Shown piece after piece: positions 38,041-38,208 of a stretch of DNA of 64,000 nt. Source of the DNA: an uncultured Acidobacteriota bacterium (GTDB taxonomy: Bacteria; Acidobacteriota; UBA6911; RPQK01; JAPXNP01); contig CAVZRV010000030.1 of NCBI GenBank assembly GCA_963777605.1, positions 384,001-448,000 on the forward strand. The letters are read 5' to 3'. Within the stretch, counting starts at the first letter, position 1. The number at the start of each line of letters is the position of its first letter. The position numbers and the translations under genes are program-made. A model generated the notes under the pieces. The model was not told the DNA's origin. It made no database searches and saw nothing but the letters and a program-made list of their open reading frames with translations.

Positions 38041-38208
38041 ATGGTTGAATGGATTTTGGTTGCGACTTTGACGGCCCTATCGTTTGTAGCACTGACAGAC
38101 ACGCAGACCGGCTCTGGAACGGAGAGCCAGGACCCGATTGTACAGACCGAGGACTGCTGTCCGGGTCCTCCTCCGCCTCCCCCTCCGTGCCGCGACGGCA
38201 ACTGCTGA
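38041..38208 (+). CDS. Small secreted Cys/Pro-rich peptide (55 aa, ...EDCCPGPPPPPPPCRDGNC), module copy 3
   Basis: GGAGCAGGAG RBS; paralog of 384-548; below the ORF-track size cutoff. Confidence 0.8.
   Translation: MVEWILVATLTALSFVALTDTQTGSGTESQDPIVQTEDCCPGPPPPPPPCRDGNC

Follow-up and report, generated by a model that had tools for sequence, protein, structure and literature searches.

In the DUF2946 family, CutF of Rhodobacter capsulatus and CruR of Bordetella pertussis have been described as secreted metal-sensing arrest peptides in which a Sec signal peptide is combined with a Cys/His metal site and with a ribosome-stalling C-terminal proline repeat that controls the next gene (bioRxiv 10.1101/2025.02.05.636593). 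SecM, MifM, VemP and the RAPP-type peptides are described as short open reading frames (ORFs) with an N-terminal signal or anchor and a C-terminal Pro-containing arrest region (bioRxiv 10.1101/2025.02.05.636593). In the Sdp system of Bacillus subtilis, a ligand-bound polytopic membrane protein sequesters an autorepressor (PMC2910880), and in the PRAD a polyproline-II helix is wrapped by four amphiphilic partner helices (PMC1285061). The present work concerns a small gene at positions 38041 to 38208 of the forward strand in a 64,000-nucleotide stretch of DNA from an uncultured Acidobacteriota bacterium (assembly GCA_963777605.1, contig CAVZRV010000030.1, positions 384,001 to 448,000). This whole stretch is called the window below. 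Judged from comparative sequence data, the peptide gene is the fourth member of an undescribed cassette of soil and sediment Acidobacteriota, the other three genes encoding an XRE regulator, a 140-aa membrane protein and a protein with seven predicted transmembrane helices (7-TM).

Like CutF and CruR, the peptide is small and combines a putative N-terminal export signal, a Cys motif and a C-terminal proline repeat. Unlike them, it has no Pfam DUF2946 match (0/21 family peptides at E <= 10; for the window peptide, none at E <= 0.01) and its Cys pair adjoins the proline run and would not be far enough from it to reach the periplasm during a stall. Also in contrast with the described cases, no conserved downstream target gene and no shielding stem-loop (z = +0.78) accompany it, and its conserved partners are a divergent 7-TM operon and the XRE regulator. 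The Sec/YidC monitoring peptides are encoded directly upstream of secA, yidC or secDF-type genes, which this peptide gene is not.

In its logic, the locus resembles SdpC-SdpI-SdpR: a putatively exported peptide, a non-enzymatic polytopic protein and a small candidate autorepressor with operators in the module. All the components are, however, unrelated. The regulator joins an XRE domain to a Roadblock-like domain and is not of the ArsR type, none of 25 7-TM proteins matches the SdpI family of Pfam, the cassette has an additional 140-aa protein, and the peptide (49-69 aa) is not processed from a larger protein. With the PRAD of PRiMA and ColQ, in which two adjacent Cys precede the prolines, the peptide shares a Cys pair beside a polyproline run on a membrane-anchored or secreted chain. 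Pfam PRIMA1 gave weak matches in 4/21 peptides (best E 0.0086), the window peptide scoring 12.6 bits against a cut-off of 38.6, and at this level of sequence similarity the likeness is one of composition only. The PRAD belongs to an animal protein, and none of the cassette proteins showed a partner helix rich in Trp.

Two copies of the peptide gene in the window

The gene at 38041..38208 (copy B, + strand) ends with a TGA stop and its 55-aa product is MVEWILVATLTALSFVALTDTQTGSGTESQDPIVQTEDCCPGPPPPPPPCRDGNC. The protein begins with MVEW and successively displays hydrophobic residues 1-19, an acidic linker, the CC pair at 39-40, a run of seven prolines and CRDGNC directly before the stop, so that it finishes CCPGPPPPPPPCRDGNC. 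A Shine-Dalgarno sequence, GGGAG (38030..38034, + strand), lies 6 nt before the ATG. The second gene (copy A), at 384..548 on the - strand, codes for a 54-aa protein 98% identical to that of copy B and stops with TAA. It finishes CCPTPPPPPPCRDGNC, with one Pro fewer and T in place of G after CCP, and its GGGAG is found 7 nt ahead of the start codon. Both genes have another GGAG immediately adjoining the ATG.

The alignment of the two genes at the DNA level revealed only two differences over codons 1-41, both at third positions and synonymous (CTA/CTG and TTT/TTC). Downstream, the Pro codons are rewritten, one in-frame 3-nt indel is present, and the similarity stops at the stop codon. The first 26 nt of the ORF gave two exact matches (0.00 expected), indicating that the resemblance of A and B is not due to chance. 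They are located at the outer edge of an inverted duplication of 2.6 kb (406-2987 versus 35593-38183), in which the peptide gene is 93% identical between the copies and the genes next to it 78-86%. These results are in agreement with the original prediction, made from the letters of the window, of a pair of 54/55-aa ORFs with this layout, each with a GGAG ribosome-binding site, silent changes alone in the N-terminal codons, rewritten Pro codons, different stops (TAA/TGA) and a similarity ending at the stop.

Coding evidence and choice of strand

The same prediction asked for further alleles, and two additional paralogs turned up elsewhere in the genome, C on contig 44 and D on contig 31. Across the four copies A-D, the ratio of non-synonymous to synonymous polymorphism (pN/pS) of the sense frame is 0.19-0.26. 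The most diverged pair is D and B, for which 31 differences were counted in codons 1-41, 19 of them at third positions (binomial p = 0.0013; Fisher p = 3e-8 for synonymous versus non-synonymous changes).

The opposite strand contains an overlapping ORF (MPSRQGGGG, the GGGGG frame) which had been regarded as the antisense shadow of the peptide gene. The wobble positions of this frame coincide with those of the sense frame and the changes between A and B are equally silent on both strands, so the A/B pair alone cannot decide between the two. The sense frame is open in all four copies whereas the antisense frame is interrupted by one stop in C and two in D; the sense frame is therefore the gene and the shadow interpretation held.

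Contigs from four public metagenome runs showed at least 7 variant places inside the ORF. By our reading, 4/7 of the variants listed are third-position synonymous and 3 match V7I and L13M of paralog C. In one of these contigs the tail reads ...PPNTRG-stop and, compared with C and D, shows three codons changed synonymously. Among RNA runs, none was listed as containing the locus. By its pattern of substitution, 38041-38208 is thus a genuine protein-coding gene under purifying selection, as had been proposed for a hidden gene maintained at the amino-acid level.

A new family of small proteins

A direct protein search with the window peptide retrieved one near-identical protein only (P0001, E37D). 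The profile of the four paralogs, run against 40 relatives, gave weak matches of the composition type; one of them, in the relative G005, was located just upstream of a gene for a 246-aa 7-TM homolog, and it was the anchoring on this 7-TM neighbour which opened up the family. A profile search of 5.8 billion proteins then yielded 18 clusters, each unnamed or annotated 'hypothetical protein', and all the 17 database proteins fetched possess a CC pair followed by a Pro-rich tail. No match to the peptide was detected in Pfam, NCBIfam, PADLOC or PHROGs, the PDB sequences gave one chance-level match (E 3.5) and no relative, and the ESM Atlas returned nothing above 0.77. No description of the peptide or of the cassette was found in the literature searched on Acidobacteria small proteins, arrest peptides and Roadblock/XRE regulators. 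As judged by sequence, the gene defines a new small-protein family.

The family members share a hydrophobic segment starting at residue 1, a variable and mostly acidic linker, the CC pair and a Pro-rich tail near the stop, as illustrated by the orthologs ADCCADPPPPPPPGGRG, QCCGPAPPPPPPPPPERQG, AECCPNPPPPPCPPDCPEPPPAD and ACCPEPWPCLPGEVCH. Their lengths are 49-69 aa (53-68 aa at the loci anchored on the 7-TM gene) and the ATG is preceded by a GGAGG-type Shine-Dalgarno sequence in 16/17 orthologs. Among 26 members, the hydrophobic segment comprises 15-24 residues and starts at residue 1 in every case, often with an uncharged n-region; 31-54 residues separate its end from the stop. The CC pair stands 0-4 residues before the Pro run in every aligned member and is followed, in the 26 members, by 3-12 Pro within 8-22 residues, the runs being 3-10 long. 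The net charge past the hydrophobic segment is -2 or lower in 19/26 and zero in 4, a mostly negative charge which makes export likely.

Only three features of the peptide are conserved: the N-terminal hydrophobic segment, the invariant CC and the Pro-rich tail. In the alignment of 21 peptides, C39 and C40 are the sole invariant residues. Paralogs C and D finish PPPPPPPPNTRG, with the pattern CCP(T/S)PPPPPPPP(P)NTRG, and lack any Cys beyond CC; the point at which the CRDGNC and NTRG types of tail diverge is situated in or just after the Pro run. Two further Cys follow CC in 9/26 members and none in 17/26, and in the 21-peptide alignment an ED before CC was found only in the copies of this genome. 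The mature ligand had been supposed to be a four-Cys, disulfide-constrained C-terminal peptide, possibly cut after ED. The selected peptide gene, its hydrophobic N-terminus, its CC pair and its proline tail were retrieved across the family, but neither the trailing Cys nor the ED site is conserved, so that a disulfide-locked ligand cut at that place is not a family trait. We infer that the Cys pair of CRDGNC in copies A and B is a lineage-specific addition which does not belong to the core of the system. The CC-C-C spacing of A and B recalls the cysteine framework of some conotoxins; this spacing is not conserved in the family.

Two proteins related to the peptide of locus L037 (P0171 and P0172) read ...CCGPGAPP followed by 40-65 extra residues and look frameshifted in their Pro/Gly-rich tail. 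This suggests that length changes of the CCN tract occur in nature or arise in assembly.

The four-gene cassette and its distribution

In the cassette, the XRE regulator gene points rightward, the 140-aa and 7-TM genes leftward and the peptide gene rightward again. The ORF with a CC pair and a proline tail (CC-Pro ORF) lies 80-400 nt upstream of the 7-TM gene and divergent from it in 17/20 loci; of the three others, L045 is interrupted 142 nt upstream by its contig end, and no such ORF exists at L042 and L043. In 20/20 loci, tblastn identified relatives of both the 140-aa protein and the XRE regulator, with order and orientation kept. An independent search anchored on the regulator, with an alignment of the helix-turn-helix (HTH) protein, gave 25 loci, all titled Acidobacteriota or Acidobacteria. 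A CC-Pro ORF is present in 19 of these, two more being cut by contig ends and two lacking a 7-TM gene. When ten loci were scanned for CC-Pro ORFs within their 16-kb context, nine showed a single match at the expected place and none was seen elsewhere in 156 kb. In the 64-kb window, the scan recovered the two true copies and one borderline match.

Within the order, 28/75 other genomes encode a homolog of the 7-TM protein (23-36% identity). When the phylum was sampled evenly, 18/401 genomes (the genome of the window, G000, included) gave a match at E <= 1e-5, and 7 of these 18 are outside the order, with weak matches. A hidden Markov model search of 1.84 billion representatives returned 546 clusters at E <= 0.001 and 187 at E <= 1e-10; a single 7-TM protein used as query for related loci gave no match. 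At weak 7-TM paralog loci inside and outside the order, the CC-Pro ORF was detected in 0/16. By these sequence searches the cassette is nearly confined to one order of Acidobacteriota. One unpublished genome (G018) enters the tallies of the searches in the 40 relatives, the order and the phylum, as well as one negative scan; no positive claim draws on it.

Beyond the four genes, the surroundings vary by genus and include a Ser/Thr kinase, TonB, an aspartokinase, OmpA, a Fur-rubrerythrin gene and transposases. Since the flanking genes differ between genera, the four genes are the unit. Most genomes hold one cassette. The present genome holds two intact copies, the inverted pair of the window; at paralog D (locus L027), the 7-TM gene is intact and the HTH gene is apparently frameshifted (two tblastn pieces 2 nt apart).

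The XRE regulator and its putative operators

The regulator gene of copy B (36138..36716, + strand) codes for 192 aa and is convergent with the 140-aa gene; that of copy A lies at 1874..2452 on the - strand. The protein scored above the Pfam cut-offs for HTH_3 (27.6 versus 27 bits) and HTH_31 (25.2 versus 23 bits). An AlphaFold2 model (pLDDT 85.6) associates an HTH domain, matched by C.AhdI, ClgR and SinR with Z 9-11, with a C-terminal domain of alpha-beta-beta-alpha-beta-beta-alpha order. With the whole-protein model, the fold matches of this second domain were the Rag roadblock LokiRag (Z 10.2), MglB (Z 9.9) and GAF (Z 9.1); as modelled, it resembles Roadblock/GAF domains.

The region between the peptide and 7-TM genes of copy B contains an operator-like palindrome, TTCGGAATACCCGAA (37925-37939), and a degenerate one, TTCGGCCCTTCTGAA (37958-37972), 33 bp apart from start to start; the pair (37925..37972) overlaps a larger palindrome at 37936-37961. 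A corresponding pair occupies 618..665 in copy A, with the strict site at 651-665 and the degenerate one at 618-632. Other palindromes of this type precede the HTH genes: TTCGGAATATCCGAA at 35966..35980 in copy B, facing a 285-aa ORF (34986-35843), and sites at 2600..2636 in copy A, facing a 259-aa ORF and an RHS gene. The XRE regulator may consequently also control these facing genes here. In total, the window contains 6 strict palindromes (0.245 expected by shuffling), each of them at a cassette promoter.

The element retained from genus to genus is TT(C/T)GG-N5-CC(G/A)AA, 15 bp long and paired about three helical turns apart. Paired sites 32-33 bp apart occur in the peptide/7-TM intergenic region of L053, L056, L058 and L060, and one strict site in that of L051 and L052. 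Moreover, this intergenic region is more conserved among the four paralogs than the ORF itself is in copy D. We infer that the XRE protein of the cassette binds TTCGG-N5-CCGAA palindromes.

A longer palindrome, CGAACAC-N10-GTGTTCG, occurs 4 times in the window (0.01 expected), in both peptide/7-TM intergenic regions and upstream of the HTH copies. It was considered as the conserved unit and rejected, its exact form not being found in other genera. In L051 (7589-7635) and L052 (8598-8644), a second pair of palindromes, 32 bp apart, lies between the 7-TM stop and the 140-aa start, which hints that the 140-aa gene has a control of its own. A search of 37600-38700 with Rfam (E <= 1) recognized no family, and consensus scans of 37600-38800 revealed neither a sigma-70-like promoter nor an intrinsic terminator.

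The 7-TM and 140-aa membrane proteins

The 7-TM gene of copy B (37124..37864, - strand) is divergent from the peptide gene and codes for 246 aa; the product of copy A (726..1466, + strand) is 84% identical. Immediately downstream lies the gene for the 140-aa membrane protein (36705..37127, - strand, in copy B; 1463..1885, + strand, in copy A, the start being taken at MRFDD). Neither protein matched Pfam, NCBIfam, PADLOC or PHROGs. Over the 25 members of the 7-TM family, no Pfam match at E <= 1 appeared beyond scattered sub-threshold noise, the PDB contains no relative of the 7-TM protein by sequence, and the ESM Atlas returned unnamed Acidobacteriota clusters only. At the level of the locus, PADLOC and PHROGs recognized only generic HTH and integrase matches.

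The AlphaFold2 model of the 7-TM protein (pLDDT 87.9) comprises seven TM helices and a C-terminal amphipathic helix, and our reading of the loops by the positive-inside rule predicts an N-out/C-in topology. In these respects, the protein recalls eukaryote-type 7-TM receptors, namely G-protein-coupled receptors (GPCRs) and LYCHOS. The top structural match (VIA-align) was the 7-TM domain of LYCHOS/GPR155, with Z 13.1 and a root-mean-square deviation (rmsd) of 3.9 over 189 residues, the helical-bundle background being about Z 13. Over the eukaryote-type receptors, Z was 10-13.1 for 172-199 aligned residues, with rmsd 3.5-4.9 and 4-13% identity. Z is at the noise ceiling of helical bundles and Foldseek E is >= 0.06; homology is unsupported.

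In the 25 aligned proteins, the invariant residues are R21, Y37, G56, Y62, G156, N158, Q173, F190 and Y198. No Cys, His, Asp or Glu is invariant, which argues against a peptidase or a transferase.

Genomic surroundings

The window as a whole is an island. It encodes transposases of IS66, IS21-type and IS240-type elements together with an RHS-repeat protein, a subtilase, a tyrosine recombinase and a HerA/DUF4007 pair. The inverted cassette copies (78-93% identity by segment) bracket about 33 kb which contain the RHS-repeat gene, the IS66, IS21-type and IS240-type transposases and the subtilase. On the side of copy A (2653-9131), the 259-aa ORF, whose product looks exported, is followed by the 1899-aa RHS-repeat protein (3432-9131); on the side of copy B, the 285-aa ORF is homologous to the 259-aa one. 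A decayed third remnant of the cassette lies at 22951..24045, with operator palindromes at 22951 and 22984. Its HTH is split over three frames, its 140-aa gene is N-terminally truncated, and no 7-TM or peptide gene is left.

Past the stop of copy A, after 8 nt, starts a PAS-domain reading frame (2-451, - strand) which runs off the edge of the window. The tyrosine recombinase gene (38757-40034, + strand; Phage_integrase, E 8e-11) begins 549 nt downstream of copy B, outside the repeat, and near copy B a putative metal-binding motif of the MopE type (E 6.4e-9) is present in a 294-aa ORF (33630-34514, - strand). Further on, genes for a DUF4007 protein and a 1581-aa HerA/TrwB-like ATPase (53368-58957, - strand) adjoin a 1428-aa ORF without Pfam family; they could be a defence or DNA-translocation module.

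Discussion

On the composition of its sequence, the small protein probably leaves the cytoplasm. The function we favour, with a probability of roughly 0.45, is that of an exported peptide partnering the 7-TM protein in a loop which feeds back through the XRE regulator. The hydrophobic segment, acting either as a signal that is cleaved off or as an N-terminal anchor, would insert the peptide into the inner membrane or bring it across, and the acidic linker and CC-polyPro tail would end up in the periplasm. There, the tail could form a rigid polyproline-II rod bearing a redox-active or cross-linkable Cys pair, and could bind the 7-TM protein, which is non-enzymatic, perhaps with the 140-aa protein taking part. 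These membrane proteins would then hold or release the XRE regulator, which would act on the palindromes, giving an autoregulatory loop of the SdpC-SdpI-SdpR type.

Several observations weigh against this reading. The n-region has no positive charge in many members, including copy B (MVEW), and the net charge past the hydrophobic segment is positive in 3/26. An intact 7-TM gene without CC-Pro ORF is present at L077 and L080, on the contigs of L042 and L043, and paralog C (L028) has intact peptide and HTH genes beside fragmented 7-TM and 140-aa genes. The strict palindrome is absent from the intergenic region of 4/10 context loci (L054, L055, L057 and L059), one-mismatch palindromes being visible in L054 and L059. 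As regards a receptor-like partner, the fold matches, LYCHOS and the many GPCRs which come next to it in the structural search (Z 10-12), are at or under the level quoted for unrelated helical bundles (about 13), and Foldseek gave nothing at E <= 0.001 with the 7-TM model, its best rows being rhodopsins and GPCRs at about 0.06. Finally, a long C-terminal Pro run would also fit an arrest peptide.

A more specific form of the exported-peptide loop is a self-contained bacterial peptide-signalling device in which the 7-TM protein, with its receptor-like topology, reads the exported peptide encoded beside it and the small membrane adaptor relays the signal to the Roadblock-domain XRE factor; we regard it as a possibility with the odds clearly against it. 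If true, it would be a prokaryotic pathway from ligand to 7-TM protein to transcription, with no kinase, no nucleotide cyclase and membrane parts of no known family.

The main competing explanation is that the product serves, like CutF/CruR, SecM or MifM, as a monitoring peptide which arrests translation. The Pro run would stall the ribosome, the engagement of the hydrophobic segment by Sec/YidC or the activity of elongation factor P would release it, the stall would control a downstream gene or the fate of the mRNA, and the peptide itself would be functionless after release. The architecture fits the DUF2946 plan as described (signal peptide, Cys/His site and C-terminal proline repeat), with Pro runs of 3-10 residues close to the stop. 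As the segment ends 31-54 residues from the stop, it would exit the ribosome tunnel while the prolines are decoded. Co-oriented genes do follow in some loci: the PAS-domain ORF 8 nt past the stop of copy A, a Ser/Thr kinase gene about 230-245 nt downstream in L051 and L052, and a Fur-rubrerythrin gene about 215-235 nt downstream in L054, L056 and L059. However, the downstream gene is not conserved, being convergent or absent in L053, L058, L060 and L057, and the next co-oriented gene of copy B is the integrase, 549 nt off. Shuffled sequences fold as well as the RNA that follows copy B (z = +0.78), and none of the 21 peptides is recognized by DUF2946. With CC placed 0-4 residues before the Pro run, the pair would be in the tunnel during a stall and could not sense the periplasm as the CxxxC of CutF does. 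Furthermore, the conserved partner is a divergent 7-TM operon, which a cis-acting leader cannot control. An arrest function therefore seems doubtful, at about one half of the credence of the exported-peptide loop. The two are nevertheless compatible, for a polyproline pause could tune the output of a functional exported peptide.

An antimicrobial or competition peptide exported by Sec, with the 7-TM protein (and the 140-aa protein) conferring immunity and the XRE protein as local repressor, appears unlikely. A fast-evolving mature part in which only CC and Pro are conserved, a polytopic partner without catalytic residues, the CC-C-C cysteine pattern of 9/26 members and the amplification of the cassette here, on an island which also carries IS elements, an integrase and an RHS gene, would all be compatible with such a role. 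In most genomes, however, the cassette is single-copy among housekeeping-type neighbours common within a family, suggesting vertical inheritance. Rather than being amphipathic or cationic, the tails are rich in proline with an acidic or neutral character, the unit has no dedicated exporter or maturation gene, and PADLOC and PHROGs are empty for the peptide, 7-TM and 140-aa proteins.

Still less probable is a thiol-based sensor or carrier of metal or redox state, in which the Cys pair would bind a soft metal or alternate between thiol and disulfide and the proline rod would present it to the membrane proteins. Mercury transporters use vicinal Cys pairs, and here the adjacent Cys pair is invariant. 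The Fur-rubrerythrin gene adjoins the peptide gene in one genus (L054, L056 and L059) and the MopE-type protein is encoded near copy B (33630-34514), but these metal-related neighbours are not conserved across genera and no His or Met accompanies the CC pair. To our knowledge, XRE regulators are not typical metal sensors, which also counts against this function.

We disfavour, as quite improbable, a precursor of a ribosomally synthesized and post-translationally modified peptide, or an AgrD-like one, for which the 7-TM protein would be the AgrB-like membrane peptidase that cuts or cyclises it. A small Cys-containing precursor that begins with a hydrophobic helix and is encoded beside a polytopic membrane protein recalls such a pair; however, processing of the AgrB/AgrD type is disfavoured because the 7-TM protein is without catalytic residues (no invariant Cys, His, Asp or Glu). 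Neither AgrB nor another Pfam family matches any of the 25 members at E <= 1, bar sub-threshold noise, and the unit has no radical-SAM, cyclodehydratase or peptidase gene.

That there is no gene at all, the conservation being due to the antisense ORF or to the DNA repeat alone, is hardly credible: the A/B pair alone keeps both frames, with coinciding wobble positions, but this reading was refuted by the antisense stops in C and D and by the orthologous ORFs at the 7-TM- and regulator-anchored loci, the sense ORF, Shine-Dalgarno sequence and architecture being retained at 17-38% identity across an order.

Genome annotation routinely overlooks small proteins. The present family marks a four-gene unit which is kept across an order of a major and poorly studied phylum of soils and sediments, and whose 7-TM and 140-aa members are likewise uncharacterised. 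It offers testable features, namely an invariant CC, a polyproline tail challenging for the ribosome, a defined operator and a non-enzymatic 7-TM partner; such clean features make it a possible model for exported mini-proteins acting with polytopic membrane proteins. Just as well, the family could provide a new natural example of translation being controlled through polyproline.

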